Source: Parachlamydiales bacterium (GTDB lineage: Bacteria > Chlamydiota > Chlamydiia > Chlamydiales > JAFEGQ01). From it: a stretch of 64,000 nucleotides of DNA. A program made the translations under genes and the position numbers. The stretch covers positions 5,690-69,689 of the forward strand of contig JBFWPF010000005.1 of NCBI GenBank assembly GCA_050250135.1, given 5' to 3'. The notes under the pieces were generated by a model. The model searched no databases. It was not told the origin of the DNA and saw nothing but the letters and a program-made list of their open reading frames with translations. Of this stretch, positions 13,281 to 58,607 are shown one piece after another. The stretch's first letter is position 1. Each line of letters begins with the position of its first letter.

Positions 13281-13449
13281 GAAGTCAGCATTGTAGGGGT
13301 TTAGCGCCCCATAGGGCCCAGCAGCCACCTGGCCTCTTAACTTGCAGTCGTCGCCCATAGCGCTTTGGCTATGGGCCTCCTCCCGCAAGTCAAGATTCCA
13401 GGCACCTGCTGGGCCCTCTGTGGCGCTCTCCCCCTCCAACGCTGACTTC
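13281..13449. repeat. Palindromic element, copy 1 (169 bp)
   Basis: Ends GAAGTCAGC/GCTGACTTC; inner arms AGGGCCCAGCAG/CTGCTGGGCCCT; centre TCGTC-GCCCATAGC-gctttg-GCTATGGGC-CTCCTC. Confidence 0.88.
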
Positions 13450-13480
13450 GGGGTGTAGCCTCAATATAGACTGGAGAAAT

Positions 13481-14398
13481 ATGGACACAGTACTCTTTGC
13501 AGGGAGCTCCCACGGGAAGCTGGCCGAGCGGGTGGCAAAGGCGAGCGGGATCGAGCTCGGAAAGGTCGCCCTCACCACCTTCCCCGATGGGGAGACCTCG
13601 GTAGAGATCCTCGAGCCGGTGCGCGACCGGGAGGTCTTCGTCCTTCAAACACTCGCCACCCGCCCCAACGACTACCTGATGGAACTGCTCATCCTGGTCG
13701 ATGCGCTCAGCCGAGCCTCGGCCGGGAGGATCACGGTGGTGCTCCCCTATTTCGCCTACGCGCGGCAAGACCGAAAAGGGGATGTGCGGGCGCCGATCAC
13801 CGCAAGGCTTGTGGCCGATCTGCTAGAGGCAGCCGGGGCCGACCATGTGGTGGCAGTCGACCTGCACGCCGAGCAGATCCAGGGCTTTTTCCGGGTCCCC
13901 CTCGATAACCTCCATGCGGCCAGGGTCCTCCTGCCCGAGGTGAAGGGGCTTGGGGTTGGTGTAGTCGTAAGCCCCGACGTGGGGAGCATCAAGATCGCCC
14001 GCCGCTTTGCGCTGGAGCTGGGCTGTCCCTTTGCCACCGTCGACAAGGTGCGGGGGCGAGAGCAGGTGGTGGCCGAAGGGGTGATCGGCGATGTGGCGGG
14101 AAAGGTTGCCCTCCTCTGTGACGATATGTGCACCACGGGAGGGACCCTAGTGGCTGCGGCAGAGGCGCTCGCCCAGGCAGGGGCAAAGCGGGTCTATGCC
14201 GCCCTCTCCCACGGCCTCTTTGTCGGGACGGCGCTGGAGGAGATCGGCCGCTCCCCGATTGAGAGGCTTTTTGTTACCGATACAGTGGCCGGCATACCCC
14301 GCCACCCAAAAGTTACCGTTCTGCCGGTAGCCCCCCTCTTAGGTGAGGCTCTGGCTCGGCTGAGCGAATCAGAATCCCTATCAACATTGCTTAACTGA
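13481..14398 (+). CDS. prs: Ribose-phosphate pyrophosphokinase
   Basis: FPDGE, PYFAYARQDRK, DLHAEQIQGFF, VVSPD.G and DDMCTTGGT motifs. Confidence 0.96.
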   Translation: MDTVLFAGSSHGKLAERVAKASGIELGKVALTTFPDGETSVEILEPVRDREVFVLQTLATRPNDYLMELLILVDALSRASAGRITVVLPYFAYARQDRKGDVRAPITARLVADLLEAAGADHVVAVDLHAEQIQGFFRVPLDNLHAARVLLPEVKGLGVGVVVSPDVGSIKIARRFALELGCPFATVDKVRGREQVVAEGVIGDVAGKVALLCDDMCTTGGTLVAAAEALAQAGAKRVYAALSHGLFVGTALEEIGRSPIERLFVTDTVAGIPRHPKVTVLPVAPLLGEALARLSESESLSTLLN

Positions 14399-14407
14399 GG
14401 ATAAACC

Positions 14408-14959
14408 ATGGAACTTACCATCGAAAAACGGGACGCTAGTCGCAAAAGGGAGTGCAAACGGCTCCTGCGCGAGGGGCGGATCCCTTGTGTGATTTATGGA
14501 AAAGCAGGGAAGTCGACCCCGATGTCGATCTCGACTGCTGAGTTTGGAGCGGCGCTGCGCGGGATCAAGGGCGGCTGCCTCCCCACCACCCGCTTCTCGC
14601 TCAAAGGGGAAGGGGATGCGGTCGTCAAGGATATTCAGTACCACCGGACCACCTACGACGTGATCCACCTCGACTTTGAGCTGATCGAAGAGGGGCAAGA
14701 GATCGAGGTCTCGGTGCCGATCCATTGCGTCGGTGCCGATCAAGCCCCTGGGATCAAGACGGCGGGCGGCGTCCTCCGTCAGGTGATCCGGATGCTCCCC
14801 GTGCGGGCCCTTCCCGGCAAGATTCCGAGTGAGGTGGTGATCGATGTCTCGGGCCTTGAGATGAAGCAGACGAGACGGCTGCGCGACATCGCCCTCCCCG
14901 ATGGGGTGAAGCCCCGCCGGAAGCTGGATGATGTGGTGGTGGTGATCGCGAAGCGATGA
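14408..14959 (+). CDS. rplY: 50S ribosomal protein L25/Ctc
   Basis: R.EGRIPCVIYG and VKDIQYH...VIHLDF; prs-rplY-pth order. Confidence 0.95.
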   Translation: MELTIEKRDASRKRECKRLLREGRIPCVIYGKAGKSTPMSISTAEFGAALRGIKGGCLPTTRFSLKGEGDAVVKDIQYHRTTYDVIHLDFELIEEGQEIEVSVPIHCVGADQAPGIKTAGGVLRQVIRMLPVRALPGKIPSEVVIDVSGLEMKQTRRLRDIALPDGVKPRRKLDDVVVVIAKR

Positions 14960-18603: not shown

Positions 18604-19411
18604 GCTCGGGGTAGAGCTCTAAGCATTTTGCCGTCCATACGGGATGCCTGGCCAGCGCTGTTGGAGGAATAATCGTCATCTTGCTGAAGTCTTTTATAAA
18701 GAATCGCAAGAAGGGATTCCTCACCTCGTAACTTACTGGGGAGGGTCTATCTTCCTTTCCGCTTAGTTCCGTCCAGGTTCCCTTGTCAACAGCAGGCAGC
18801 TGCGGCCACCAGCTGACCCACTGGATCGATACCAGCGCCTTGCCCTCCTGATCGATAAAGAGCAATTCCGCCTCCCCAGCCTGCTCTCTTGCAAAAAAGA
18901 GACCATCCGTACCCTTACGGACCCAGATCCGTTCAAAGCCCGTAGCGCAGTAGGGAGATTGGAAGAAAATCTGATCATCGTAGGCAAGGGGATGGGAGGC
19001 TAGGAATTGTTGGAAAGTTGGGTAGCAGCGGCTCAACCCACGGGGGTGCCACTTCTTGGCAAGGTCGTTCCACCCCCGTTCGATCATGCTATTCGGAGGC
19101 AGGAGGGGCCGAGACACCCATTGACCTTCGATCGGCTTTACCTCTTTCATCCAGACCTCCGCCATCCACTCTAGCCAGGTCGAGCAGACCCGCTCGGCTT
19201 TGCCCCGTTCAGGCAGTACATGTTCACGGGGGTAGCCCCCTCTCCAGGGGCGGGGGTCACAAATCTCTCAGCTTGCAGTCGTCGCCCATAGCTATGGCTA
19301 TGAGCTCCTCCTTTAAGCTGAGATCTTTGCAACCCGCGCTCCCTAGCGAGGGGACCCCCCCTCGTGAACACGTACTTCAGGCAGAGGCAAATAACCAAAC
19401 ACGAGTGGCAT
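18578..19411 (-). pseudogene. Hypothetical gene interrupted near its 5' end by palindromic copy 2 (3' part 18578-19165 still open)
   Basis: AAGGA SD and ATG at 19411 (MPLVFGYLPLPEV); the element adds TAG and TGA in this frame; removing 156 bp gives one continuous ORF into LPERGKAERVCSTWLEWMAEVW. Confidence 0.6.
19217..19374. repeat. Palindromic element, copy 2 (158 bp, TA..TA)
   Basis: Ends TACATGTTCACG/CGTGAACACGTA; 59-nt core identical to 46606-46664; centre TCGTC-GCCCATAGC-tatg-GCTATGAGC-TCCTCC. Confidence 0.93.
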
Positions 19412-20729: not shown

Positions 20730-21935
20730 ATGTGGAAGCTGCTGTTAGGATCGTTGCTGGCTATTCTCCCCTTAACCGCCCAAACCCCCTCCTGGACCGG
20801 GTTGGTCGAGGGGACCGACCAGTTCACCCTCGACCTCTACAAGGCGATTTCACCGGCGCCTGGTAACCTCATCATCTCCCCCTTCTCTCTGTCAACGGCT
20901 CTTGCGATTCCCTATGTAGGAGCTAAAGGGAGGACGGCGCAGGAGATGCAGCGGGTGCTCTACTACCCTCAAGTAGGGGGAGCTGCCCTCGCTCAAATCT
21001 TCACCGATCTTGCCGACCACCTGAGCAGCGATAAGGGAGAGGGGCTCGAGCTCCGAATCGCCCGCAGCCTCTGGGTACAAGAGGATCTCTCCCTCGCTCA
21101 CCCCTTTCAGAAGGTGATGGAGGAGACTTTTAGAGGGGGGCTTCAGGAGGTCGATTTCAAGATGCCCAAGATCGCCCGCCGAGAAATTAATGCGTGGGTG
21201 AAAGAGGAGACGGGAGGGAGGATCACCGACCTGATGCCCGAAGGGTCGGTGACGCCGGCCGATCGGATGATCTCGGTCTCGGCCCTCTACCTTCGGGCCA
21301 ACTGGACCCTCCCCTTCGACCCCCGCAAGACCCAAGATGAGCCCTTTTCGATTTCCCCAAGTCAGCAGATCAAAACTCCTCTGATGCACGGACAGATGCG
21401 CCTCCCCCACCTGGCGGGGGATCGGCTCGAGGCGATCGCCCTCCCCTATGAGGGAGGAAAAGAGGGGGTGCAATTGGCGATGCTGATCCTCTTGCCAAAG
21501 ACGGGGGAGCTGGGCGAATTTGAGCAGGCGCTCTCCCTCGACCTTCTCAAGGGGATCCTCGAGCAGATGAGCCTTAAAGAGGTCGCCGTGACCCTCCCCA
21601 GGTTCCGGATGTCGACCCGCCTCTACGCCAAGGATGTGCTTGAGGGGCTAGGGATGACAACCCCCTTCTCGAGGCAGGCCGACTTTTCGGGGATCGACGG
21701 AGGCAAGGGACTTCAGCTCAACGCCGCCATCCACCAGGCCTACATCGATGTCGACGAATATGGGACCGAAGCCACAGCGGCCTCGGCCGTCTCAGTCGGG
21801 GTCACCTCCGCTCCGGCCAAAGAGAGTGAAGTCGCCTTTGTCGCCGACCACCCCTTCCTTACCGTTGTTCTTGACGCCGGCTCAGGTCAAATTTTATTTA
21901 TAGGTCGTGTCGAAAACCCCTCCTCCGAGGTTTAA
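20730..21935 (+). CDS. Secreted serpin
   Basis: Signal peptide; NLIISPFS, INAWV..T.G.I, hinge EYGTEATAASA and FVADHPF signature. Confidence 0.94.
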   Translation: MWKLLLGSLLAILPLTAQTPSWTGLVEGTDQFTLDLYKAISPAPGNLIISPFSLSTALAIPYVGAKGRTAQEMQRVLYYPQVGGAALAQIFTDLADHLSSDKGEGLELRIARSLWVQEDLSLAHPFQKVMEETFRGGLQEVDFKMPKIARREINAWVKEETGGRITDLMPEGSVTPADRMISVSALYLRANWTLPFDPRKTQDEPFSISPSQQIKTPLMHGQMRLPHLAGDRLEAIALPYEGGKEGVQLAMLILLPKTGELGEFEQALSLDLLKGILEQMSLKEVAVTLPRFRMSTRLYAKDVLEGLGMTTPFSRQADFSGIDGGKGLQLNAAIHQAYIDVDEYGTEATAASAVSVGVTSAPAKESEVAFVADHPFLTVVLDAGSGQILFIGRVENPSSEV

Positions 21936-22097
21936 CCCCTGATGGCAGCCTATCGTCCTGACGGCAGCGACAGTGAGCGGCCATCTGGAGCACATCCCTC
22001 CTTACCCGGGTTTGCAAACCCGGCCTCGTCACGATGTGCACCATCTGACCACCCCCTGATGCCCCTTCAGGACGATAGGTTGCCATCAGGGGTTTAA
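21931..22097. repeat. Palindromic element, copy 3 (167 bp)
   Basis: Arms CCCCTGATGGCAGCCTATCGTCCTGA/TCAGGACGATAGGTTGCCATCAGGGG; centre CTCCT-..CCGGGTTT-gc-AAACCCGG-..TCGTC; homologous to the reverse complement of 43666-43832. Confidence 0.92.
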
Positions 22098-22854: not shown

Positions 22855-23908
22855 TAACAACGCGACAACACCGCTCGACCCGAGAGTGGCCGAGGCGATG
22901 GCGCTTGACCTGCTCCCTGCGAACCCCTCCAGCGTCCATTGGTATGGCAGGGAAGCGCGCAACCGGCTAACCAAAGCCCGTCGGACCGTTGCTGAAGTCC
23001 TGGGCATCCTTCCAAGTGAGGTTGTCTTTACCTCAGGTGGTACCGAATCGCTCTGCACCGTGTTGCAGGGAATGGAGGGGCATATCCTCTCCTCCAATCT
23101 GGAACATCCGGCGGTCTATGAGACCCTGCAAAGGCGGGGGAGCGCGACCTTTCTTGAGCCGGGCCCCTATGGAGCCCCCACCCCTGAGCAGGTCGAGCGG
23201 GCGATTCAGCCCAATACCCGCCTGATCGCCCTGATGGCGGTCAACAATGAGACCGGCGCTGTGACCGATATTGAGGGGATCGCTCGAGTGGCCCAGTCGG
23301 CGAATATCCCCTTGCTCGTTGATGCAGTAGCTCTCATGGGCAAGGGGCCCTTGCCCCTCTTTCCCGGGGTTTCGGCTATTGCCCTCTCGGGCCACAAGTT
23401 TCACGGACCAGCCGGCATAGGGCTCCTTATCCTGCGCACCCCTTTTCGGTGCCCCTCCCTTTTGACTGGAGGAGGGCAGGAGGGGGGGAGGCGCCCTGGG
23501 ACCGAAAACCTGATGGGGATCATCGGCCTTGCCAAGGCGGTTGAGCTCCTCGACCTCTCGGCGATTGCCCATATGTCCCTCCTGAGGGAGCGGCTTGAGG
23601 GGGGGATTTTGCGCCGTTTTCCCGAGGCGAAGATCAATGGAGAGGGGCCTCGAATTTGCAACACAGCCAATATCGCCTTTGGCGACCTTGAAGCGGAGGC
23701 GCTGATGATGAATCTCGATTTAGAGGGGGTAGCGGTAAGCCATGGCTCGGCCTGTACCTCGGGGTCGTTAGAGCCCTCCCGTGTTCTCCTCAATATGGGC
23801 TACTCCCGCCAGCGGGCGGCCGCCTCCCTCCGCTTCTCCCTCAGCCGCTTCAACACCTCGGAGGAGATCGATCTCACACTCGAAATCCTCTCAAAATTAA
23901 TGAATTAA
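22835..23908 (+). CDS. iscS: Cysteine desulfurase (NifS/IscS family)
   Basis: YLDNNATT, FTSGGTE, VNNETG, SGHKFHGP and S.GSAC.SG motifs. Confidence 0.92.
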   Translation: MRRIYLDNNATTPLDPRVAEAMALDLLPANPSSVHWYGREARNRLTKARRTVAEVLGILPSEVVFTSGGTESLCTVLQGMEGHILSSNLEHPAVYETLQRRGSATFLEPGPYGAPTPEQVERAIQPNTRLIALMAVNNETGAVTDIEGIARVAQSANIPLLVDAVALMGKGPLPLFPGVSAIALSGHKFHGPAGIGLLILRTPFRCPSLLTGGGQEGGRRPGTENLMGIIGLAKAVELLDLSAIAHMSLLRERLEGGILRRFPEAKINGEGPRICNTANIAFGDLEAEALMMNLDLEGVAVSHGSACTSGSLEPSRVLLNMGYSRQRAAASLRFSLSRFNTSEEIDLTLEILSKLMN

Positions 23909-23912
23909 GTAA

Positions 23913-23974
23913 GACCAAAATAAAGGCAACTTTCGTTTGGTCCGGACCAAACGAAAGCTGCCTTTATTTTGGTC
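23913..23974. repeat. 62-bp near-perfect loopless palindrome between convergent genes (possible bidirectional terminator or REP doublet)
   Basis: 31-bp arms with one mismatch, centred on TCC|GGA; each arm is itself a hairpin. Confidence 0.85.
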
Positions 23975-23977
23975 CAA

Positions 23978-42648: not shown

Positions 42649-43670
42649 GAATTCTCCTCCTCCCCCCTGGTACTCCGGCTATTCGGGGAACGGTGCGGAT
42701 GGTGCGGGAAAATCCCGATGAGTGCTCGGTTCTTGTGTACAGCGCTGATGCTGACCCCTCCCCCTTTTCCCTCTCCCTCTTCGACAACTACTTCAAGGTC
42801 CCCCCTCTCCACGACCCCGCTTACATTCCTGCGGTGCTTCACCTTTGTCAGCGGGAGGGGATAGACCTGATCCTGTTCCATCATGATGAAGAGACCGCTC
42901 TCTACATGGCCCATCAAGAGGCTTTTGAAGCCATCGGGACCCGCCTTGTGGCCTCCCCTCACCAGGCGGTCAAGACCGCCACCCACAAGGCCCATCTCTA
43001 TGAAGCTTTGGGGAGGGAGGGGATCCCCCTTCCGCGCTACGAGCTTGTCACCGCAGAAAACTGTGAGGAGGTGGCGGTGGCCTTGGGCTATCCCGACCAT
43101 GACCTGATCGTCAAGCCCCCGAACTGCTGGGGAGCAAACGGGGTCTACCAGCTTACCGCCCGCCCCCTTCCCTGGGATCAGCGCCTTCGCCTCCCGATGA
43201 TCACCCTCCCGCAGCTTAAGGCGAGCCTCGACCGCCCGGTCCTCATGCTCGAGTACTTGCCCGGTGCGGAGTACTCGGTCGATGCTTTTCTCGGCTCGCA
43301 AGTGGCCATTGCCCTTCCTCGGCGGCGTGACCGCATTGTGGGGGGGCTTGCGATTCAAACCACCCTAGAAGATCAACCTGAATTAGCAGAGCTTACCCTA
43401 AAGGCTGGCCGGGCGCTTGGCCTGCGCTATGTCTATGGGATGCAGTTTAAGTGTGACAGTGAGGGGAGGCCCCGCCTCCTCGAGTGCAATCCGCGGATTC
43501 AGGGGAGCTCCGTTGCCTCGTGGGGGAGTGGGCTCAATCTGATTTGGCTTGCGGTGCGCGAGGCTCTTGGCGAGCCTCCCGCCGACCTTCCCCGCCCCCT
43601 TCATGGGGCGACCTACGCCCGCCATTGGGGAGGAGTTGTCACCGCCGGAGACCGCTCCTGGGAGGTTTAA
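42639..43670 (+). CDS. ATP-grasp protein (stand-alone CarB-like)
   Basis: IVKP...GA.G, EYLPGAEYSVD and LECNPR..G motifs. Confidence 0.85.
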   Translation: MSLRILLLPPGTPAIRGTVRMVRENPDECSVLVYSADADPSPFSLSLFDNYFKVPPLHDPAYIPAVLHLCQREGIDLILFHHDEETALYMAHQEAFEAIGTRLVASPHQAVKTATHKAHLYEALGREGIPLPRYELVTAENCEEVAVALGYPDHDLIVKPPNCWGANGVYQLTARPLPWDQRLRLPMITLPQLKASLDRPVLMLEYLPGAEYSVDAFLGSQVAIALPRRRDRIVGGLAIQTTLEDQPELAELTLKAGRALGLRYVYGMQFKCDSEGRPRLLECNPRIQGSSVASWGSGLNLIWLAVREALGEPPADLPRPLHGATYARHWGGVVTAGDRSWEV

Positions 43671-43832
43671 CACCTGATAGCGATCTATCGTTCTGAGGGG
43701 GCGGCAGGGGGTGTTCGGATGGCGCACATCGCGACGAGGCCGGGTTTGTAAACCCGGGTAAGGAGGGATGGGCTCCAGATGACCGCCTACTGTCGATGCC
43801 CTCAGAACGATAGGTCGCAATCAGGGGTTTAA
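43666..43832. repeat. Palindromic element, copy 4 (167 bp, inverted relative to copy 3)
   Basis: Arms CCTGATAGCGATCTATCGTTCTGAGGG/CCCTCAGAACGATAGGTCGCAATCAGG; centre GACGA-..CCGGGTTT-gt-AAACCCGG-..AGGAG. Confidence 0.92.
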
Positions 43833-44330: not shown

Positions 44331-45010
44331 CAAAAACCTATTCCGAGTTCAAGGGTTATCGGGAGGAGTATACCATTTTCCCGGAAACAGGGAAGCTTTG
44401 CGTCGAGCTCGACGAAGAAAAGTCGCACGGCCCCCTTTTCCCATCTCCATTGGAGGCCACCAGCGCAGTTAATGAGAGCGCCGCTGAACCGATCGGCCAC
44501 CGTTCCCTTGAGCATAAAACCCCCAATCCCGGCGCCGAGGTAGGGGGTGCAGCGGTAGTGGGGTGTCAGGTAGAGAAGCCCCATCCCCCGTCCGTAGAGG
44601 AGGGTGAGCTGTTCGACACTTTGGTCCCCAAAGGCCTGGTTGTGGTGAAGTATGCCCGCCGACAGATCCCAGCCGAAACACCCCCCTTTGGCGCTGCGGA
44701 CCCCAAGGCCAGCGGAGATCACCGGATCGAGCGCCTCCGGGTGGAAGGAGAGGGTCCCGCCGCCCCCTTTTACGTAGGCAAAGCGCCCCTCTCCCCATGC
44801 GAGAGGAGAGGCCAGGAGAAAGAGGGCTACAAGGCACGCCCTTAAAAAGTTATAGCGTCGCCCTCTTGCTGCATCGGCCACCTTGTTGATCTCGCTCCTC
44901 ACCCATAGCGCTTTGGCTATGGGCTTCGTCGCGATTTCAATAATCTGGCTCGATTCGCTAAGAGGCCGCCTGCTATAACTTTTTGAGGACGTACCTAACA
45001 AGTACTTCAT
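44330..45010 (-). CDS. Outer-membrane beta-barrel-like paralog carrying an in-frame palindromic insert
   Basis: PYLGAGIGG and terminal GIGF; about 52 aa encoded by palindrome copy 5 lie between MKYLLG and CLVALFLLASPLAWG. Confidence 0.72.
   Translation of the reverse strand: MKYLLGTSSKSYSRRPLSESSQIIEIATKPIAKALWVRSEINKVADAARGRRYNFLRACLVALFLLASPLAWGEGRFAYVKGGGGTLSFHPEALDPVISAGLGVRSAKGGCFGWDLSAGILHHNQAFGDQSVEQLTLLYGRGMGLLYLTPHYRCTPYLGAGIGGFMLKGTVADRFSGALINCAGGLQWRWEKGAVRLFFVELDAKLPCFRENGILLPITLELGIGF
44835..44993. repeat. Palindromic element, copy 5 (159 bp, inside a CDS)
   Basis: Arms ACGCCCTTAAAAAGTTATAGC/GCTATAACTTTTTGAGGACGT; centre CTCCTC-aCCCATAGC-gctttg-GCTATGGG-ctTCGTC. Confidence 0.9.
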
Positions 45011-46522: not shown

Positions 46523-46562
46523 TTGACGCCCCTCCCCCGAGCTGCTTATCCTGCCTCCATGG

Positions 46563-46720
46563 TACATATTCACGGGGATAGCCCTCTCCCTAGGGGCGCA
46601 GCTCGCAAATCTCTCAGCTTGCAGTCGTCGCCCATAGCTATGGCTATGAGCTCCTCCTTTAAGCCGAGATCTTTACAACCCGCGTCCCCTAATGAGAGGA
46701 CTCCCCCTCGTGAACACGTA
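46563..46720. repeat. Palindromic element, copy 6 (158 bp, TA..TA)
   Basis: Ends TACATATTCACG/CGTGAACACGTA; same subfamily as copy 2, with compensatory arm changes. Confidence 0.93.
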
Positions 46721-46726
46721 CCCTAT

Positions 46727-48029: not shown

Positions 48030-48068
48030 CCCGCTCATTATCAACATATAATGATAAAATAAATTGTA

Positions 48069-48097
48069 TTGTAATTTTAATCCCATCTTGATATAAT
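48069..48097 (+). promoter_or_regulatory. Near-consensus sigma66/sigma70 promoter
   Basis: TTGTAA-17-TATAAT with extended TGn in an AT-rich island upstream of 48120. Confidence 0.65.
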
Positions 48098-48119
48098 CAA
48101 TGGACAACAAGGCAAATTA

Positions 48120-51805: not shown

Positions 51806-52104
51806 GATTCGATCACCGGGGGGACTTGGATGAGCCCGCCGACATGGGCGGGGGAATTTTCTAGGAAGGTCTGCCTAGCCAGAAGTCGGCTCTCTTCGAT
51901 CCGATCCTCCCGCATAGGGGAGGGGGACTCGCCGAGGACGAAGTTGCAGGGGGGAACCTCTTCGGTGTCGATCCCCTCTAGCTGCTCGAAATAGGCGACG
52001 ATATCGGTCAGGTTTTTGCAGAGGCGGGTCCGCTCTTCAGCTGTCGCATCGATCCGGCACAGCTCCACCAAATGGTCGATTGTCTCAGGGGTAATCTCGC
52101 TCAT
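51802..52104 (-). CDS. gatC: Asp/Glu-tRNA amidotransferase subunit C
   Basis: 100 aa upstream of gatA; L..L.RI, MRED and VP.VI pattern. Confidence 0.92.
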   Translation of the reverse strand: MSEITPETIDHLVELCRIDATAEERTRLCKNLTDIVAYFEQLEGIDTEEVPPCNFVLGESPSPMREDRIEESRLLARQTFLENSPAHVGGLIQVPPVIES

Positions 52105-52230
52105 AGCACTGTGAAGTGTACGGAGGCAGCCCTATATTGTAAACCGCCCTGCGACCCAGAAACGCCCCAGGGATAAAACCTCTACGGCCCAGATACCGGT
52201 TTGGGTTGCCCGAATAGTTTGCAAATATTT

Positions 52231-53151
52231 TTAGAAATTAAAGAAGGCTTTTGCGCCGGCGTAGAAGGTGACGTTGAGCTCCCGGTAGGTGAGGAGGTCG
52301 GCGAGCTGGGTGTAGATCTTGACCCAGCCGGCAGGGAGGCAGCCCACATAGGCCTCAACCCCAAAACGGGTAGTGGCATGGTGGTCGAGCCTGAGCTCAA
52401 AGCCCCAGCTCCGGTACTCCCAAATGGCCTCGGGAACCGGTTCATTGGGGGCGGCCCGCTGCCGGTTCCGGAGGAAGTGGGCGGCAAAGGCAAGGGAGGT
52501 GTCCTTGGTAAAGCAATAGGTGACCGCCATATCGGTGGGGTAGACAAGGGAGAGCTTCACCTTTCGCCGGATCATGGTGTCGATCCCAATGACGGGGCGG
52601 ACAAACCCTTTGCGCTTGCCGGCGATCCAGAGTATCCCCATGTGGAAGCCGAGATTGGGGCACCAGTCGTAGCGCCCCGCTAGAATCCCGTGGTAGTCGC
52701 CATAGCGTCCCAGGTTGGCTTGGGTGGTCTGCCACCACAGGCCGACCATCCCGGTCCAGAGCCAGCGGGGTATTCGCCTTGTGTAGCCGGAGAGGGAGAG
52801 GTTCAGTTCGGGAAATCCGGTGTCGTGGAAGTAGGGGTTGTCGGTCAGGTCGAAGGTCGACCAATCGTAGCCGAAGTTGACAGCAAGGGCGGAGCAGGGG
52901 TCGACACAGAGGGTGTAGCGGAGGTTGACCTGCCCCTGCGAATAGGAGAGGTAGCCCCCTAGGGGGTCGTCGATATGCGCCCGCCCCGTGATGAGGTACT
53001 CGGCATCGCTGTGCCAGGGAAAGACATAGGCATAGTAGACGATGGCATCCCATTGGCAGCAGGTCCCCTTGTTCGGGTCCTGCGACTCAAAGCGGAACGA
53101 GTCGGCGAAAAGGGCGAGGGGAAAGAGCAAGAGCGGCAAAAGGCGTTTCAT
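52231..53151 (-). CDS. Putative outer-membrane beta-barrel protein
   Basis: Signal peptide MKRLLPLLLFPLALFA; aromatic-rich alternating strands; terminal Phe (FFNF). Confidence 0.72.
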   Translation of the reverse strand: MKRLLPLLLFPLALFADSFRFESQDPNKGTCCQWDAIVYYAYVFPWHSDAEYLITGRAHIDDPLGGYLSYSQGQVNLRYTLCVDPCSALAVNFGYDWSTFDLTDNPYFHDTGFPELNLSLSGYTRRIPRWLWTGMVGLWWQTTQANLGRYGDYHGILAGRYDWCPNLGFHMGILWIAGKRKGFVRPVIGIDTMIRRKVKLSLVYPTDMAVTYCFTKDTSLAFAAHFLRNRQRAAPNEPVPEAIWEYRSWGFELRLDHHATTRFGVEAYVGCLPAGWVKIYTQLADLLTYRELNVTFYAGAKAFFNF

Positions 53152-53173
53152 GGGGATGGTTAATACCACGACA

Positions 53174-54751
53174 TCAACACAAAAGGCTAGTCCCGCCTTG
53201 CATTCGGGTGAGCTCATCGCGCCGGGCCTGGCCGGAAACGGGACGGATGGTGGTGAGGGTTCTGCCCTGCTGCTCCTCTTTGGCGATGGCAAAGTGGTGG
53301 TCGGCTTGGCGGGCCACCTGCGCTAGGTGGGTGATACAGAGGACTTGCCGCCCCGTCGCAATCGTCCCCAGTTTTTGGCCGACAAGCACGGCCGTTTCCC
53401 CTCCCATGCCACTGTCGATCTCATCGAAGATCAGGGTGGGGGTCCTCTCAAGGCCGCTCAGAGCCGTTTTAAGGGCGAGGAGGAGGCGGGAGAGCTCGCC
53501 GCCGCTGGCACACTTGCGGACAGGGAGTCTCCCCTCGCCAGGGTTGGGGGCAAAGAGGAACTCGACCCCATCGCCACCGGTAAGGGAGAGGGGAGTGGGG
53601 GTGATCTCGATCTCGAACTCGGCCTTGGCGAGGTTGAGGGGACGGAGGTGGGCGCAGGCGGCCTCTGCGAGGATTTTGGCTGCCTTTTTCCGCTCACCTG
53701 TAAGGACCATGGCGAGCTCTGTGCACCGGGCTTGTTCAGCCTGCAGTTGTCGCCCCAGTTCAGCTAGCCGCTCCTCACCGCCCCCGACTTGCTGCAGCTC
53801 CGATTCGATCTGGTGCTGGTAGGCAACTAGATCGGGGCCATACCGCTTCTTCAACCGCTCTAAGAGGGCAAGGCGGCTCGCAATGGCCTCTTGCCGCTCA
53901 GGATTGTGCTGCAAGCGGTCGGCATAGCTTCGGAGGGTGTGGGTCAGGTCTCGGACCTCGACCAAGACCCCCTCGAGATCGGCAGTGTGAGAGGGGTCGA
54001 GTTTTCCCATCCGCTGGAGCGCCTTTTGGCACTGGGCGAGGAGGGTGAGCGCTCCCCCCTCCCCATCGAGCGCTTCGATGGCCTCATAGCTTTTCTGCGC
54101 AAGCTCTTCGGAGTGGGTGAGCTTGGAGTACTCCTGGAAAAGGGTCTCCTCCTCTCCCTCCTGCGGTGCAGCGGCGGTGAGCTCTTCTAGCTCAGCTTGC
54201 AAACGGGCCTCCCTTTTTGCCCGCTCCTCAGCGCTGTCGGTCAAGCGGCGAAAGCTCTCCTCGAGTTCCTGGCAGCGGCGATAGCTCTTTTCGTAGTGGC
54301 TCGTGTCGATTTTGCCGTAGAGGTCGACCGTCTCGAGGGGATAGCTTGGGGTAGTGAGGCGGATGTTGGCGCTCTGCCCGACCACGTCAAGGAGGGTGGC
54401 AGCGAGCCGTTTTAAAAAGGTGGTCTGGACCATCTGTTGGTTGACAAAGGCGCGGCCAGGAAGCTCGCGGGAGATGATCAGATCGCCGCCCGGTTCATGT
54501 TCTATCCCGGCCTCAGCAAGGAGGGAGAGGGCCTCGGGAAGGGGAGAGAAGGCAGCTTCGACCCGCGCTCTATCGCAGCCCGAGCGGATCAGATCGGTGT
54601 CGGCCCGGCCGCCCAAAGCGAGAGCCAGAGCCTTTAGGATTGCCGACTTGCCCGCCCCTGTCTCACCGGTCAGGACCGTGAGGCCCCCTTCAAAATCGAG
54701 ATGGGCCGATTCGATTAGGACAATGTTCCGGATGGAGAGGGACTTTAGCAT
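53174..54751 (-). CDS. recN: DNA repair protein RecN
   Basis: TGETGAGKS, coiled coil, ASGGELSR, IFDEID.G..G and CITHL.QVA motifs. Confidence 0.95.
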   Translation of the reverse strand: MLKSLSIRNIVLIESAHLDFEGGLTVLTGETGAGKSAILKALALALGGRADTDLIRSGCDRARVEAAFSPLPEALSLLAEAGIEHEPGGDLIISRELPGRAFVNQQMVQTTFLKRLAATLLDVVGQSANIRLTTPSYPLETVDLYGKIDTSHYEKSYRRCQELEESFRRLTDSAEERAKREARLQAELEELTAAAPQEGEEETLFQEYSKLTHSEELAQKSYEAIEALDGEGGALTLLAQCQKALQRMGKLDPSHTADLEGVLVEVRDLTHTLRSYADRLQHNPERQEAIASRLALLERLKKRYGPDLVAYQHQIESELQQVGGGEERLAELGRQLQAEQARCTELAMVLTGERKKAAKILAEAACAHLRPLNLAKAEFEIEITPTPLSLTGGDGVEFLFAPNPGEGRLPVRKCASGGELSRLLLALKTALSGLERTPTLIFDEIDSGMGGETAVLVGQKLGTIATGRQVLCITHLAQVARQADHHFAIAKEEQQGRTLTTIRPVSGQARRDELTRMQGGTSLLC

Positions 54752-55635
54752 GCCCGTAGGATATCCCGTGTCGTTTTAAAGTGGAGCTTGCCGGTCTTTT
54801 CGAGGACCTGCTGCCCATGTTTGGCGACGAGGGCGCACCCGGTCTCGACTATCCCGTTGTTGGCCCCTTTTGGAAGGGGGATCCCCCACTCTTCGCTGAG
54901 CTGGTCGAGCCCCTTTAGGAAGGCAGCCCGGGCTAGGATGGAGGCCGCTGCAACAACGGGGTCCGATTCGGCCCTGACCCGTTGGGTCACCTTGAGGGTG
55001 ACCCCCCGTTTAGCCAGAGCCCTGTCGAGGACGTGGGGATAGGCAAACTGGTCGACGAGGGCCGCCTTAGCGCCTGTTTTCTCTTGCAAAGAACCGATCG
55101 CGGCCGCGTGGGCCCAGGCAAGGAGGGAGTTTAGGTTGCCGAATTTCTGGTAGAGCTCATTGTACTTGGTAGGAAAGAGGCGGACGATCTCCCAGGGGCA
55201 GAGCTCCCCAATCTCTTTGGCTAGCTGGCGCACCTTGCCATCGGGGAGTCTTTTGGAGTCGATCACCCCCATCTTGACCAGCCTCTCGATCTTCTCTCTG
55301 TCGGCGTAGACAGCGGCGATGCAGAGGGGGCCAAAGTAGTCCCCCTTGCCCGCCTCGTCCGAGCCGATGCGGGCGCTGTAGTCGACCTCAGCTGCCACCC
55401 CGTAGGTGAAGGTTCCCAACACTTCGGGTTCGAGAAAGTAGGTGATAAAGTCGGGGGCCCCTTTCCCCTGCACGACCAGTTTGCCCGAGTCGTAAAGGGT
55501 GAGGCTGACCCCCTCCCCCTTAGCGGCAAAGCGGGTGTGGAGGGGCTGGCTGAAGGAGAAGCCGCGACCGGCAAGGGCGGTGCGGAGGGTCTCTTCAAGC
55601 GCCAGATCGATCTGGGTAACGAAGGGGGTAGCCAT
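54745..55635 (-). CDS. rnhC: Ribonuclease HIII
   Basis: N-terminal LY.SGKLVVQG (TBP-like); IGSDEAGKGDYFGP, DSK.L and AAASILAR motifs. Confidence 0.95.
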   Translation of the reverse strand: MATPFVTQIDLALEETLRTALAGRGFSFSQPLHTRFAAKGEGVSLTLYDSGKLVVQGKGAPDFITYFLEPEVLGTFTYGVAAEVDYSARIGSDEAGKGDYFGPLCIAAVYADREKIERLVKMGVIDSKRLPDGKVRQLAKEIGELCPWEIVRLFPTKYNELYQKFGNLNSLLAWAHAAAIGSLQEKTGAKAALVDQFAYPHVLDRALAKRGVTLKVTQRVRAESDPVVAAASILARAAFLKGLDQLSEEWGIPLPKGANNGIVETGCALVAKHGQQVLEKTGKLHFKTTRDILRAC

Positions 55636-55663
55636 GGACTAAGTGTAGCAGGCACCCTTCAAC

Positions 55664-55692
55664 TTGACCAGATTTGCCTCTCGCTCTAGGAT
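55664..55692 (+). promoter_or_regulatory. Putative promoter of the HTH gene
   Basis: TTGACC-17-TAGGAT. Confidence 0.5.
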
Positions 55693-55723
55693 GAGCGAGG
55701 ATCCCTCTCTCTACGGGTAACAC

Positions 55724-56140
55724 ATGAGTCAAACAGTCGAAAGTAAAGAGAAGTTAACTCACGATATCTTCCGGCTCAAACGGGCCGAGATGAACCTCTC
55801 TCTTAAAGAGGTGGAGAACGCCACCTCGATCCGGATAGCCTACCTGCAGGGGATTGAAGAGGGGCGAATCGGCTCCCTCATCTCCCCCGTTTACGCTCGG
55901 GGCTTTGTGAAGCAGTACGCCGCCTTTCTCGGCCTCGACGGAGAGCGCCTTGTCCGGGCCAATCCCGAGCTCTTTGGAGCGCGGGAGCAGCAGGACTTTG
56001 CCTACGGCATCGGGACCCTCGAAGTTCGGGGAAGCCCAGGCGGCGGGGTCAAGTGGCTCCCGAACCTTCTCTGGGCAGGGGGGATCGCGATCGTCCTGGC
56101 AGGGGCCTACTACTTTGCCAAATCGATGGGGCTACTGTGA
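55724..56140 (+). CDS. HTH protein with C-terminal TM segment (chlamydial RodZ/CT009-like)
   Basis: LSLKEVENATSIR..YL..IEEG..Y.RGF.KQYA.FLGLD, then a TM segment; divergent from rnhC as in Chlamydia. Confidence 0.85.
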   Translation: MSQTVESKEKLTHDIFRLKRAEMNLSLKEVENATSIRIAYLQGIEEGRIGSLISPVYARGFVKQYAAFLGLDGERLVRANPELFGAREQQDFAYGIGTLEVRGSPGGGVKWLPNLLWAGGIAIVLAGAYYFAKSMGLL

Positions 56141-57264
56141 ATTTCCTCCTGCTGACGGGGCTAACCGACGCCCCTCTGCAGGACCTCGGGGGTCTAACCC
56201 CTCTTCAGAAAGCCCACACCCCCAACCTAGATCGACTAGCCCAAGAGGGGGGGTGCCTCCTCTTCGAACCCCCTAAGTGGGGGGGGATCGAGACGACCCT
56301 ATTGGCGATGCTCGGCGTGGAGGAGGGGCTCGATGAGCCAAGCGCCGCTGCCCTGGAAGCGGCGGCTCTCGGCATTGAGCTCAGGGGGGATGAGACCCTC
56401 TACTGCGCCCGCCTGGTCTCAGCAGGGGGTGGAGCGATCGTTGAGGTGGGCGATGAGCTGGTCAGCGATACGGAGGGGGCCCTTCTGTGCGAGGCCCTGA
56501 GCGCCGAGTTTGCTGCGGAGGGACTCCAGTTTGTCTCGATCCAAGGCCCCCGCTGTTTGATGATCAGTCGGACCCCTTTCGGCCCCCTCCCTGGACCGGG
56601 CCCAAGCCCATTTGAGGTGGTCGGAGAGCGGTGGAAGGCCCTTTTGCCAAAAGGGATGCGGGCTACTCTTGGTAAACTGCTCGATCGGGTGGGGGAATCT
56701 CTAGCCGAGCATGAGGTCAACCAGCTCCGCTCCGACCTGGAGGAGGTGCCGATCAATGCGCTGTGGGTGTCGGAAGGGGGCGGGGTGCCGAGGTGGATGG
56801 GCACCTATCGGGGCCCTGTGGGGGTGGAGATCTGGTGTGTCTCTTCTCTTGTCCAAGGGATCGCCGTTAGCTTGGGGCTCCCTTGCCGCCAGCTAGGTCA
56901 TGGCCTCCGGATGGATCGGGAGATCGAAGGGCTAGTTCGCAAATTGGAAGTCCGCCCCTTAGATATTCGCCTAATCGAGCTTCCCCACCTCTGGGAGAGC
57001 ACTTACAAGGGGGACCTGCTGGAAAAGATCAAGCGGATCGAGTACCTCGACCGCCACCTGATCGGCCCCCTGACAGAGATGGGGGAGCTGGCCGTCCTGC
57101 CGCTGCGCCACACCGATATTCGGATCGGTCAGGTGATGAGGGGACCGATCCCCATGGTCACGACCCTTCCGGGCGATCCCCTCCCCTCCTTCGACGAGGC
57201 GACCTTCTCTCAGCTCACTTTGACGCCGTTAAATAGGGCACTTTTGCTGCCAGCTGCGCGGTGA
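56137..57264 (+). CDS. Degenerate ApgM-like (cofactor-independent phosphoglycerate mutase family) protein
   Basis: [34 protein letters not shown] and GD..EKIK.IE..D; metal ligands appear substituted. Confidence 0.7.
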
Positions 57265-58336
57265 TCTGGCGCGGCTTTGCCGCCTCGCCGTACTCCCCCC
57301 GTTTGTAGGCCGCCGCCATCTCCTCGAGGGTGACAATCGGCACATCGCCAGCGTGGCCCGCCTGTCCAAATTCCTTCATCCGCGCCTCACACACCTTCTC
57401 CATCGCATCGCGCGCTGGTGTTAGGTACTTGCGCGGATCAAACTCGGCCGGTTTCTCATCGAATAGCTTTCGGATCGCGCCAGTCATCGCAAGGCGACTA
57501 TCGGTGTCGACGTTGACCTTCCGAACGCCCGCCTTGATCCCCCGCTGGATCGCCTCCACAGGGACACCAAAGGTGGGGGGCATTTTTCCGTTGTGGTCGT
57601 TGATGATCTTGAGCAGCTCTTGGGGGACCGAGGAGGAGCCGTGCATCACCAGGTGGCACTTGGGGAGCCGCTTATGGATCTGCTCGATCCGCTCGATCGA
57701 GAGGACCTCACCCGTCGGTTTTTTGTCGAACTTGTAGGCGCCGTGGCTTGTGCCGCAGGCGATGGCTAGCGCATCGACCCCGGTCCGCTCGACAAAGTCG
57801 GCCGCTTGATCGGGATCGGTGAGGAGCTGCTCCAGAGAGAGTCTCCCCTCAGCTCCATGCCCATCCTCCTTCTCTCCCTCACCGGTGTCGAGCCGGCCCA
57901 AAACGCCCAGCTCTCCCTCAACGGAGACGCCGAGGGTGTGGGCCATGTCGACCACAGCTCGGGTAACGGCGACGTTGTACTCATAGCTGGCAGGTGTCTT
58001 CCCATCGGCCTCGAGGGAGCCATCCATCATCACGCTCGTAAAGCCCTGCTTAATCGCGCTCAGGCAGGTGTCTGGGCTATTCCCGTGGTCTTGGTGCATG
58101 ACGATCGGGATCTCGGGGTAGAGCTCAGCGGCGGCCAGCATCAGGTGGCGGAGGAAGGCATCCTGCGAATACTGCCGCGCTCCCCGACTTGCCTGAATGA
58201 TCACTGGACTTTGGGTCTTGCGTGCAGCGGCCATGATCGCCTGAATCTGCTCCATGTTGTTCACGTTGAGGGCAACGCAACCGAATCCCTTCTTGGCAGC
58301 ATAGTCTAAGAGGGGACGTAAAGGGATGAAGGGCAT
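57215..58336 (-). CDS. fba: Class II fructose-bisphosphate aldolase
   Basis: [39 protein letters not shown] and LVMHGSSS motifs. Confidence 0.96.
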
Positions 58337-58439
58337 AAGGCAACTCCTGTAACCGGTTTTGCTTCAGGCTATAGGAGTAGAGGGGTAAAGCACAAGAGCT
58401 AGCGGTGCCAGAAATGGGCCTAGTTGTTATACGGGCAGT

Positions 58440-58607
58440 ATGGGTAAGCATTTAGCTCCTTTGAGCCACATCCCGCTTGTGGGGACCCTTCATCTGCGTC
58501 GCGGAGCTCCTCCCCCAGGGCGCGGGGCCCTGGGGTCGTCACTCCACTCGCATCTGCCAGGCCCGCACGTCGCGGGATGCGTCTACAGGAGCTAAATACT
58601 TACCTAT
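58440..58607. repeat. Palindromic element, copy 7 (about 168 bp)
   Basis: Arms ATGGGTAAGCATTTAGCTCCT/AGGAGCTAAATACTTACCTAT; centre CTCCTC-CCCCAGGGC-gcggg-GCCCTGGGG-TCGTC. Confidence 0.88.

Follow-up and report, generated by a model that had tools for sequence, protein, structure and literature searches.

A 64,000-nt stretch of a Parachlamydiales draft genome (contig JBFWPF010000005.1, positions 5,690 to 69,689; here called the window) contains seven long palindromes of similar length, with different arms and similar centres. This raises the question of what kind of element they are, how such elements move, and why one centre is found between unrelated arms. A sequence-only reading had described them as a single structure-defined family, non-autonomous and mobilised in trans. 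We found that they are indeed structure-defined and non-autonomous, but that they belong to several families, not one. These families probably form a superfamily of non-autonomous palindromic MITEs of environmental chlamydiae, built on a common hairpin chassis and similar in behaviour to Rickettsia RPEs.

All seven palindromes were found at the positions first reported (Table 1). An inverted-repeat search listed six of the seven and missed e6, which aligns to its own reverse complement and shares 89% identity with e2 across 158 nt. Alignment and family clustering recovered the five arm types described earlier: e1, e2 with e6, e3 with e4, e5, and e7. The e1 element is a singleton in the arm clustering (group 13). 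The paired changes described within arm types are present in the sequence: where e3 has GTCCTGA/TCAGGAC, e4 has GTTCTGA/TCAGAAC, and where e2 has CCCCTC/GAGGGG, e6 has CCTCTC/GAGAGG.

Table 1. Palindromic elements of the window and the adjoining tRNA gene.
Feature	Position	Strand	Description
tRNA-Gln	13206..13277	+	3' end abuts e1
e1	13281..13449	+	single-copy palindrome, 169 bp; arms 65 nt at 80%
e2	19216..19375	+	GTACATGTTCACG-type; arms 46 nt at 72%
e3	21931..22097	+	ACCCCTGAT-type; arms 34 nt at 91%
e4	43666..43832	-	e3 family, 85% identical to e3; arms 34 nt at 88%
e5	44834..44994	+	GTACGCCCTTAAAAAG-type; arms 25 nt at 88%
e6	46562..46722	+	e2 family; flanking 8-mers CCTCCATG and CCTATATG
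e7	58444..58603	+	GTAAGC-type, IS66-like termini; arms 21 nt at 90%

The reported location of the palindromes at gene edges holds against crude ORF-based gene calls. Both e3 and e4 overlap a TAA stop codon, three others (e2, e5, and e7) are in divergent 5' regions, e6 is at a gene start, and e1 is 4 nt 3' of tRNA-Gln. The e3 element proper spans 21935-22093 and has TTA on either side, the left flank holding the TAA stop of the upstream ORF. The e4 element proper (43670-43828) also has TTA/TTA flanks and sits between convergent ORFs. The e7 element, between divergent ORFs, stops 2 nt short of a possible ATG. An identical 8-bp duplication, TTCAGGCA, flanks e2 at 19208-19215 and 19376-19383. The 8-mers flanking e5 are GCTACAAG on the left and CTAACAAG on the right, and flank comparison found no target duplication around e1. 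The sequence-only reading saw no transposase in the window, and a search with six transposase Pfam families gave no match in the contig that contains it (C5).

Further copies are numerous. The 1.70-Mb draft genome contains 126 palindromic repeats of at least 130 bp, about 1.5% of its DNA, and these fall into at least 14 arm families. The length is 150 to 179 bp in 92 of 127 self-palindromic loci. The elements have terminal inverted repeats, and they contain no transposase gene because they are too short (under ~300 bp) to hold one. The commonest family is the ACCCCTGAT type to which e3 and e4 belong, with 58 copies, a median nearest-neighbour identity of 96%, and a median pairwise identity of 84%. 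The families of e2/e6, e5, and e7 have 8, 14, and 11 full-length copies, respectively. For e5, the best match to model R1 scores 81 bits.

The elements are mobile, because copies are nested, target-site duplications are family-specific, and an insert in ksgA is missing from orthologues. In five cases, a ACCCCTGAT-family copy has inserted into or abuts another element whose intact target is known, and the duplicated targets are TTTAA, TATAA, TCTGA, TTTAA, and TTAAA. The length of the duplication is specific to the family, at 2, 3, 6-7, or 8 bp. Identical 3-bp flanks were found in 34 of 50 anchored copies of the ACCCCTGAT family. Identical 8-bp flanks were found in three GTAC/GTAA families (2/6, 3/11, and 3/9 copies, the last being the e7 family), and two more families have identical flanks of 3 bp (4/5 copies) and 2 bp (6/10 copies). 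These nested insertions and duplications bear out the claim of non-autonomous elements mobilised in trans. The ksgA insert is in frame, is about 50 aa long, and is absent from five aligned orthologues, which thus provide an empty site. There are four further putative in-frame insertions, including one in dnaX; in the commonest family, 41 of 52 copies retain one open frame. The elements occupy mostly AT-rich intergenic spots, stop codons, the neighbourhoods of tRNA, tmRNA, and 5S genes, and other elements; only occasionally are they within genes.

Duplication lengths this varied (2, 3, 6-7, and 8 bp) point to several kinds of transposase, and the ends of the elements are modular. Two group-1 subfamilies are alike over their middle 100-120 nt (~65-90% identity in 20-nt windows), yet they have unrelated ends (the terminal 17-20 nt) and duplications of different length. 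The terminal 17 nt of one family are common to the end of a putative IS5-type insertion sequence, and this terminus recurs near contig ends. At one contig end it is adjoined by a reading frame ending in IATRYEKLARNF, of which a 26-aa fragment matches the C-terminal end of Pfam DDE_Tnp_1_2 with an E value of 0.007, below the cut-off of that family. An IS66 element starts with GTAAGCGT and has only its first 8 nt in common with the e7 family. No autonomous partner of the commonest family was found in the draft assembly, which breaks at insertion sequences; its termini occur outside catalogued elements at four places, with no full insertion sequence. The sequence-only reading had proposed looking for an HUH/RAYT or IS630-type transposase. 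The former is not borne out: Y1_Tnp (PF01797) had no match in this 91%-complete genome, and the element ends suggest enzymes of the IS5 and IS66 types instead. For IS630, one family has 2-bp TA duplications that would be compatible, but the terminus of that same family adjoins the putative IS5-type C-terminus.

The common feature of the families is the centre. The arrangement YTC[C/G]TC-hairpin-YTC[G/C]TC is present in 84 of 123 full-length copies; the other 39 lack the motif as defined by our regular expression, and in groups 1, 2, 8, and 12 the centre is variant or missing. In e5, the centre reads GCTCCTCA-CCCATAGC-GCTTTG-GCTATGGG-CTTCGTCGC. The hairpins have stems of 7-9 bp and loops of 4-6 nt with TCGTC and CCTC alongside. 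Both flanks of the hairpin carry a tag, and the whole is set within a longer helix. We scanned the genome for [CGT]TC[CG]T[CT] followed by a perfect hairpin (6 bp or more) and then by the same motif again. There were 73 matches, 65 within catalogued palindromes and 8 outside, and five shuffled genomes gave 0, 4, 2, 0, and 5. The flanking motifs are therefore far above chance. They had been said to occur in either order. Both orders do exist (74 copies have CTCCTC..TCGTC and 7 have TCGTC..CTCCTC), but the swapped order is confined to the e2/e6 family and e1, in which it reads TCGTC-hairpin-CTCCTC on the plus strand. The pyrimidine loop motif of e4 is on the minus strand. The swap was probably one event, because e1 and the e2/e6 family have a core of ~50 nt in common.

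The centre is conserved across genomes. We searched 301 genomes of the order with a pattern for the centre and used the reversed pattern as a control. This genome gave 55 matches versus 3 for the control, and other genomes gave 114 versus 0, 23 versus 2, 21 versus 1, 19 versus 0, 10 versus 0, and 8 versus 0. They have the same architecture and loop motifs, with different arms and hairpin sequences. Long hairpins centred on the motif were found at 16 of 18 fetched foreign loci; the remaining two, from one genome, have only a central hairpin of ~75 nt. In an alignment of 46 sequences, 84.9% of cells are paired, versus 60% after shuffling, and two-sided changes occur at all 18 pairs. The covariation score is 0.516, versus 0.149 for shuffled alignments (0 of 500 reach the observed score) and 0.05-0.09 for slid controls, although the alignment was fitted to the structure model and a mobile DNA palindrome keeps its pairing even without selection on the folded strand. 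Across the families of the order, the apical and outer stems have changed sequence many times, whereas the unpaired loop letters are constant.

The two strands of an element are not predicted to fold equally well. With DNA parameters, the strand carrying GACGA and GAGGAG (the purine-loop strand) is the more stable in 80 of 84 copies, with a mean folding energy of -56.1 kcal/mol versus -47.4 kcal/mol for the other strand. Copies within a family share descent and are not independent, so the fair count is by family, and the purine-loop strand folds better in all 11 motif-bearing families here. The same is true of 17 of the 18 elements taken from 10 other genomes. The purine-loop strand mostly has 2-8 G.T pairs (0-8 overall), and the other strand mostly has 0-2. 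This asymmetry, as computed, is a new finding.

A second new finding is that the orientation of the elements follows GC skew in two genomes. On a 3.9-Mb contig of another genome, the elements are split 33:11 between the strands outside the interval 0.74-2.69 Mb but 13:40 within it (Fisher 7e-7; 0 of 500 permutations), and the switch agrees with GC-skew sign over 20 windows sampled. In this genome, the association is modest and depends on window size: of three skew windows tried, ±5 kb gave p 0.28, ±10 kb gave p 0.048, and ±20 kb gave p 0.004 (two-by-two counts 28, 10 / 19, 27). The polarity is equal in both genomes.

We suggest that three modules make up each of these imperfect palindromes of ~160-170 bp: outer ends, paired arms, and the conserved centre. 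The outer ends, of ~17-35 nt, would be the terminal inverted repeats for one particular transposase per family, and movement would depend on IS5-type, IS66-type, and other transposases encoded elsewhere. The centre would consist of a short closing stem (often GC/GC), an internal loop of TCCTC / TCGTC, and an apical hairpin whose pairing is conserved and whose sequence is free. On the purine-loop strand, the loop may pair as G.A/A.G on either side of a single C-G pair, and arm mismatches would become G.T wobbles. The centre and arms may be kept because the GACGA..GAGGAG strand must fold while single-stranded, most likely at the replication fork. Loss by deletion or excision may be more frequent for copies with the better-folding strand on the lagging-strand template, and we propose that orientation therefore follows GC skew. 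More tentatively, the chassis could be old and order-wide, propagating or surviving as a folded strand whose purine loop is read by a putative conserved factor of the host or element; the outer 17-35 nt would be swapped to suit the available transposase, and replication direction would decide persistence.

The centre might instead be merely inherited from one old palindromic element, slowly mutating and without a function of its own. Partial similarity around the centre does link families, both between e1 and e2/e6 and between the group-1 subfamilies, and only one lineage has the motifs in swapped order. We think this unlikely, because frequent change in the stems while the unpaired loop letters stay is the reverse of neutral decay, and because the G.T asymmetry has the same polarity throughout the 11 unrelated arm families here and in nearly all foreign elements. 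G.U-type wobbles concentrated on one strand would also suit a purine-loop strand that works as RNA, and host-serving RNA roles have been proposed for REP, ERIC, and Correia elements. The elements here could then be terminators, processing sites, or transcript stabilisers. Their placement is suggestive: an element lies within 60 bp of 10 of 36 tRNA/tmRNA genes, two surround one 5S rRNA gene, and convergent gene pairs hold 34 of 114 elements versus 16% of all neighbouring pairs. But orientation tracks GC skew and not the local gene strand (p 0.82), and where the flanking genes are co-directional it is unbiased with respect to them (24 purine-sense versus 17 pyrimidine-sense, p 0.35). In addition, the hairpins have no T run and match no Rfam family. 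The sole Rfam match in the window is tRNA, and 20 element loci searched at E up to 1 gave only adjoining 5S, tRNA, and tmRNA genes plus plant miRNA hairpins, which were weak and far under their thresholds. An RNA role is thus quite improbable.

A third alternative makes the centre a REP-like unit, mobilised by an HUH enzyme of the RAYT type or by a hairpin-specific enzyme, that either inserted into pre-existing palindromes or is itself the true mobile part; we regard it as very improbable. Single-strand transposons have a replication-linked orientation, which the link to GC skew here would fit. IS200/IS605-type HUH single-strand transposons, however, are not known to make target duplications, and whole elements here carry them. 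Moreover, solo centres were not found, since the 8 matches outside long palindromes compare with 0-5 in shuffled genomes, and this 91%-complete genome has no Y1_Tnp match. Hairpins tagged with CGTC or CCTC form a known superfamily, RPE-4 and RPE-6 among them, with some members inside longer palindromes (excerpts of PMC3733652), and a TCGTC or CCTC tag lies beside the hairpin here as well. The A/T-pair stem starts and CCA tail of the CGTC units described in those excerpts are absent here; stems begin with C/G in most families, and no CCA tail was seen at the centre hairpins.

The superfamily of palindromic MITEs that we favour can be set beside four known systems. Like REPINs with their RAYTs, the elements are hairpin-forming repeats with a conserved unpaired tag, but GTAG is absent from the foot of the central hairpins, Y1 transposase is unmatched in the 91%-complete genome, and target duplications are present. 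The CGTC/CCTC-tagged REPs of Di Nocera et al. 2013, in the parts of PMC3733652 consulted, are short hairpins with an unpaired CGTC or CCTC tag; for the CGTC type, the stem is 8-9 bp, the loop 4-5 nt, and the tag CGTC (or CCTC/TGTC). There they are free-standing 20-40 bp units or dimers, some nested in longer palindromes and some in genes, with A/T-pair stem starts, CCA tails, and no dedicated transposase known. The unit here is never alone and has neither an A/T-pair stem start nor a CCA tail. Classical bacterial MITEs (Correia/NEMIS, ERIC, RUP, Nezha, and others), as outlined in the relevant part of PMC10969869, are small, non-coding, multi-copy elements that are mobilised in trans, often into AT-rich targets, and show nested insertions; they end in terminal inverted repeats and make short duplications of the target. 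Small size, terminal inverted repeats, family-fixed duplications, and nesting are common to both. However, each classical family derives from one insertion sequence type, whereas here at least four duplication classes go with one length, whole-length palindromy, and one centre, and the terminal 17 nt alone match the candidate partner insertion sequence. RPEs are outlined in the same source as ~150-bp palindromic repeats of several families, intergenic or in frame in housekeeping genes, to which they add peptide (PMC10969869). The likeness is one of form and behaviour only: palindromic, ~150 bp, several families, an intracellular lineage, and in-frame insertion. The phylum is different, and clear terminal repeats, family-specific duplications, and a candidate insertion sequence partner here point to DDE transposases. 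A common centre across end-types, strand asymmetry, and orientation bias do not figure in the portion of the RPE description in PMC10969869 that we compared. If the more tentative reading of an old, order-wide chassis is correct, these elements would represent a new class of modular, strand-polar MITE and, in parallel to Rickettsia RPEs, a ready source of new peptide segments in essential proteins.

All seven palindromes that the sequence-only reading had placed in the window lie where it put them, and its division of their arms into five types was borne out (e1; e2 and e6; e3 and e4; e5; e7). Six of the seven appeared in our inverted-repeat listing; e6, the one not listed there, is 89% identical to e2. 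We compared G000, the 1.70-Mb Parachlamydiales bacterium draft genome (45 contigs, about 58% G+C), with itself and obtained 7,628 non-self alignments, of which 3,974 were 160 to 179 bp long. Repeats at 432 loci made up 9.0% of the genome. Alignment with their own reverse complement was found for 127 loci, 92 of them 150 to 179 bp. Clustering of 98 palindromes (130 to 210 bp) gave 14 groups with 54, 11, 6, 5, 5, 4, 3, 2, 2, 2, 1, 1, 1, and 1 members. A search of the genome with the same 98 yielded 181 loci, 126 of them at least 130 bp, and all 181 together cover about 25 kb (1.5%). We class the elements as palindromic miniature inverted-repeat elements (MITEs) with a behavior like that of the Rickettsia palindromic elements (RPEs). 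The observation made on the window is confirmed, and its interpretation as a non-autonomous family mobilized in trans is supported; the observations fit MITEs moved by several DDE transposases.

The motif YTC[C/G]TC stands on both sides of the apical hairpin in 84 of the 123 full-length copies, in the order CTCCTC..TCGTC in 74, reversed in 7, and with C at both central positions in 3. As direct repeats, the two loop strands are almost identical; those of e3 are CCTCCTTAC and CCTCGTCAC, and most copies of the e3 family have CCTCCTCAC in place of CCTCGTCAC, one letter off the other loop strand. Their central letters differ (C in one strand, G in the other), which in our reading allows a single C-G pair in mid-loop. 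A stricter scan for centers, with the stem required to be perfect and 6 bp or longer, found 73 sites, 65 of them inside catalogued elements, versus 0 to 5 in shuffled genomes. Therefore, the center that had been noticed as shared by the seven copies is not a chance feature, and it has no independent existence. We had considered a dispersed small hairpin as the seed of the palindromes in G000 and dropped this idea, as solo centers were not found.

The structure model R1, built from 8 centers, is too narrow and serves for structural alignments only; its search of G000, in which 150 of 396 candidates were scored, found at least 30 places. When 46 centers were aligned to R1, 84.9% of cells paired (60.0% when shuffled), both sides had changed in 18 of 18 pairs, and the covariation score was 0.516 (0.149 when shuffled, with 0 of 500 shuffles reaching the observed value, and 0.05 to 0.09 with partners slid), figures to be read with the alignment fitted to the structure and with palindromic DNA staying paired anyway. 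The loop letters TC..CTC and TCG..TC were almost invariant in this alignment. Among eight copies of the commonest family, which includes e3 and e4, both-side changes occurred at 8 of 60 predicted pairs. An Rfam search of the window and of 20 element loci matched the elements to no family and gave no hit that would support a likeness of the purine loop to a hammerhead or k-turn.

The arm DNA of e3 was absent by BLAST from 40 of 40 relatives. We counted the pattern SCTCCTC-N18-30-TCGTCRC against a reversed control in 301 genomes of the order; a separate survey meant for the phylum drew same-order genomes only, and its scope is that order. The counts were 55 versus 3 in G000 and 114/0, 23/2, 21/1, 19/0, 10/0, 8/0, 7/0, 7/0, and 6/1 in other families of the order. 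Most of the 301 genomes were at background, including about 30 of one 1.0- to 1.3-Mb genus. We took 18 loci from 11 genomes, and 16 of them folded as hairpins of about 140 to 175 nt centered on the motif, with arms and apical stem sequences each their own. Two loci of one genome have only the central hairpin of about 75 nt. These foreign elements were called by folding; a palindrome search that allowed no indels under-called them. One foreign locus has, by eye, an 8-bp duplication, GAGGAATG. The arms are lineage-specific, and the center alone travels. In a wide contig scan, the matches listed were mostly chance occurrences in GC-rich genomes. Six listed matches titled chlamydial or Verrucomicrobiae had z scores of -4.0 to -15, and six from other phyla, at +1.8 to -3.1, were not strongly structured. 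The structured matches bore the titles of Parachlamydiales, Parachlamydiaceae, Chlamydiae, and Simkaniaceae MAGs and of one Verrucomicrobiae MAG, and on these grounds we regard the lineage as chlamydial. A MAG with the latter title carries chlamydial-type elements (loci L131 and L142), and its label may be worth rechecking.

Gene calls in G000 were crude and ORF-based (1,386 ORFs with the longest possible start). On these calls, most elements (93 of 123) fall between genes; 17 overlap the called 5' end of a gene, 8 overlap its 3' end, and 5 are contained in ORFs. Many of the 17 overlaps are probably over-extended starts, because the calls use the longest possible start. Elements lie between convergent genes in 34 of 114 cases, compared with 16% of all neighboring pairs. 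A separate 72-bp near-perfect palindrome (36-nt arms, 92% identity, no spacer), outside all element families, also lies between convergent ORFs, possibly serving as a bidirectional terminator. The five intragenic copies are all of the commonest family, and each is in frame. Their hosts, from a reading of the translations, are a KsgA/RsmA-like methyltransferase, a DnaX-like protein, a LysE-like membrane protein, an ankyrin-repeat protein, and a protein of unknown function. One frame is open in 41 of 52 copies of this family. The ksgA gene provides an empty orthologous site of the kind that the proposed mobility predicts: five orthologues are gapped by about 50 residues exactly at the element. 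The KsgA query gave two matches in 10 of 12 relatives (residues ~5 to 112 and 165 to 325), which are only 6 to 17 codons apart in the relatives' own DNA.

Elements also lie within 60 bp of 10 of the 36 tRNA/tmRNA genes. Two elements from different families enclose a 5S rRNA gene. There are elements on either side of the tmRNA gene: one lies 36 nt upstream, and two stand in tandem at the 3' end, where the first of the two pairs with the acceptor end of the tmRNA. A tRNA at locus L073, from a genome of another family, is followed by an element whose arms are similar (CCA-TTTCGATT..). Right after e1, the first 11 nt of the tRNA-Gln gene (window 13207 to 13217) are repeated in GGGGTGTAGCC, which could have been left behind by a second tRNA copy or by a rearrangement. 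Another repeat family, containing ..TTTTACCACAGAGGGCACAGAGAAGCACAGAGG.., has about seven copies of 240 to 620 bp, often adjoining palindromic elements; its copy in the window has 40-nt inverted arms, 93% identical and 224 nt apart.

The commonest family, ACCCCTGAT...ATCAGGGGT, has inserted into other elements; at five such places the target is known in its uninterrupted form, and a short target is duplicated at all five. Its 3-bp flanks are identical in 34 of 50 anchored copies and have one mismatch in 12 more; a 5-bp reading, TNNNA, fits as well. Identical flanking 8-mers occur in 2 of 6, 3 of 11, and 3 of 9 copies of three GTAC/GTAA-type families. The TACCAAT-type family has 3-bp TAA/TTA flanks (4 of 5 copies), 6 of 10 copies of the GGGCGTGTAATC-type family are flanked by 2 bp, TA in most cases, and a sixth end-type, ACCCGACTTGCC, has a 6- to 7-bp duplication in 3 of 3 copies by eye. 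The duplication lengths differ, and therefore the transposases differ. The GGGCGTGTAATC and ACCCGACTTGCC subfamilies have the middle 100 to 120 nt in common (13 to 18 of 20 positions identical per window), and their termini are unrelated (8 of 20 and 3 of 11 identical). Contigs assembled from three DNA runs over window 43000 to 59000 broke at element centers, and none bridged an empty site; they had only short internal skips, which resemble other, shorter copies, so they speak neither for nor against polymorphism. Some mini-palindromes of 40 to 75 bp consist of two facing termini of one family with the core absent.

Six transposase Pfam families were searched for in G000, and their matches all lie outside contig C5, of which the window is 5690-69689, in agreement with the earlier statement that the window holds no transposase. 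They comprise DDE_3 (two places), rve (two places), DDE_Tnp_1 (four places, of which three adjoin a contig end), DDE_Tnp_1_2 (one contig end), and IS66 (one place). The IS66 inverted repeats start GTAAGCGTAAAGG and have GTAAGCGT in common with the e7 family. An HUH/RAYT transposase had been proposed as a possible mover, and G000 contains no Y1_Tnp match. The GGGCGTGTAATC terminus recurs elsewhere: at four contig ends it lies about 100 to 125 nt in, and four further occurrences are internal and uncatalogued. The start of contig C10 also has this terminus, preceded by a reading frame that ends IATRYEKLARNFLGGVYLASALIWLN. This frame aligned with the end of Pfam DDE_Tnp_1_2 at an E value of 0.007, and its 17 bits fall short of the cut-off of 29. 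The end of this putative insertion sequence (IS) and the GGGCGTGTAATC-type MITE have only about 17 nt in common, so the MITE did not arise from the IS by simple deletion. We also sought an IS parent of the commonest family, and none of the four terminus matches outside elements was a full IS. Two of the four are elements that interrupt an rve-type gene and an IstA-like transposase gene, and both truncated frames continue into the element (..PLIVTYR..). Groups of 5 to 9 contig ends have common repeats of about 127 nt, likely the assembler word length; several insertion sequences have thus collapsed, and their interiors are absent from the bin.

Positions of the elements and of other features (window coordinates, or contigs C3 to C29 of the draft genome G000)
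Feature	Position	Remark
e1	window 13281	
e2	window 19216	
e3	window 21931	
e4	window 43666	minus strand
e5	window 44834	
e6	window 46562	
e7	window 58444	
Repeated tRNA-Gln start	window 13450-13463	
72-bp palindrome	window 23908-23979	
TTTTACCACAGAGGGCACAGAGAAGCACAGAGG repeat	window 62676-62979	
TTTTACCACAGAGGGCACAGAGAAGCACAGAGG repeat	C5:68312-68685	
TTTTACCACAGAGGGCACAGAGAAGCACAGAGG repeat		C7 end
TTTTACCACAGAGGGCACAGAGAAGCACAGAGG repeat	C11:3633-3731	
5S rRNA gene with two elements	C13:46404-46891	locus L027
tmRNA gene with elements	C29:9980-10885	locus L028
Mini-palindrome	C3:13561-13627	adjoins ATPase gene (~410-430 aa, P-loop GPRQ.GKTT), paralogous to that at C10
Mini-palindrome	C11:16985-17046	
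Mini-palindrome	C12:8546-8620	
Mini-palindrome	C10:37598-37638	adjoins ATPase gene paralogous to that at C3
TnpB-like ORF, 362 aa	C4:27805-28890	reading of translation
TnpB-like ORF, 362 aa	C4:48173-49258	second copy
Truncated rve-type gene	C16:8604-9142	by commonest family
Truncated IstA-like gene	C6:5870-7322	by commonest family
Common contig end	C25:1-127	
Common contig end	C29:1-130	
Common contig end	C15:1-128	

The strand that carries the purine loop (GACGA..GAGGAG) was the more stable one in 80 of the 84 motif-bearing copies with DNA parameters (mean -56.1 versus -47.4 kcal/mol) and in 82 of 84 with RNA parameters. The center alone contributes only about 2 kcal/mol of this difference, and the remainder comes from the arms, in which G.T pairs number mostly 2 to 8 (0 to 8 overall) on the purine-loop strand and mostly 0 to 2 on the other. 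The polarity holds in 11 of 11 motif-bearing arm families in G000 and in 17 of 18 foreign elements. Because arm sequences are unrelated between families, these observations are largely independent. Such a pattern would be expected if one strand must fold. It would not be expected of duplex DNA or of a cruciform, because every G.T pair on one strand corresponds to an A.C mismatch on the other. A mutation bias acting in situ would not account for the pattern, since deamination of the G-rich strand, if exposed, would create G.T pairs on the strand opposite to the one that has them.

The palindromic ends are symmetric, and orientation is defined only by the center and the arm mismatches. We found no significant bias relative to flanking co-directional genes (24 versus 17, P = 0.35) and no link with the local majority gene strand in G000 (P = 0.82). 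In G000, 55 of 84 copies have the pyrimidine-loop strand on the G-rich strand, with P values of 0.004, 0.048, and 0.28 for GC skew taken over ±20, ±10, and ±5 kb. In the window, the pyrimidine motif is on the plus strand in six of seven copies, and the contig skew is +0.058. On a 3.9-Mb contig of another genome, 73 of the 97 copies listed had the same polarity, and orientation switched at points half a chromosome apart that coincide with the sign change of GC skew in 20 sampled windows; the strand of long ORFs had no such switch pattern on this contig. The center, the common length, the one-strand wobble, and the replication-linked orientation together suggest that the purine-loop strand would fold as a single strand in the cell. 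In this scenario, deletion or excision would more often remove copies that have their stronger hairpin on the template of the lagging strand. In E. coli, asymmetric palindromes are known to be deleted in an orientation-dependent manner. The center itself may serve transposition, persistence, or a host function.

Palindromes that invade proteins as RPEs do have so far been treated as a peculiarity of Rickettsia. The same behavior in a second, unrelated intracellular lineage would make them a recurrent outcome rather than an oddity. The modular build, with one center, one length, and swappable transposase-specific ends, is unusual among bacterial MITEs, and the swappable ends offer a natural experiment on the change of helper enzyme in non-autonomous elements. 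The G.T/G.A asymmetry and the link of orientation to replication bear on the old question of whether such repeats act as DNA or RNA, and hairpin formation in vivo is now testable. In practice, the repeats break assemblies and yield false start codons and fused ORFs; they should be masked or annotated in chlamydial MAGs.

We found no prior description of three features: interchangeable ends, here on one conserved core; one-strand polarity, with the wobble and G.A pairs on one strand in common across families and genomes; and an orientation tied to replication. Literature searches that combined MITEs or palindromic repeats with chlamydial names returned nothing relevant among the titles listed. 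The chlamydial elements do not belong to the REPIN/RAYT class. Their center is similar to the CGTC/CCTC-tagged hairpins of Di Nocera et al., which include RPE-4 and RPE-6 and are sometimes nested in longer palindromes (PMC3733652). However, the chlamydial elements lack what defines these hairpins there: a stem that starts with A/T pairs, a CCA tail, and occurrence as free-standing units. Closest in behavior are the Rickettsia RPEs, described as about 150 bp long, in ten families, with many in-frame insertions (PMC10969869), and the likeness drawn here is one of behavior.
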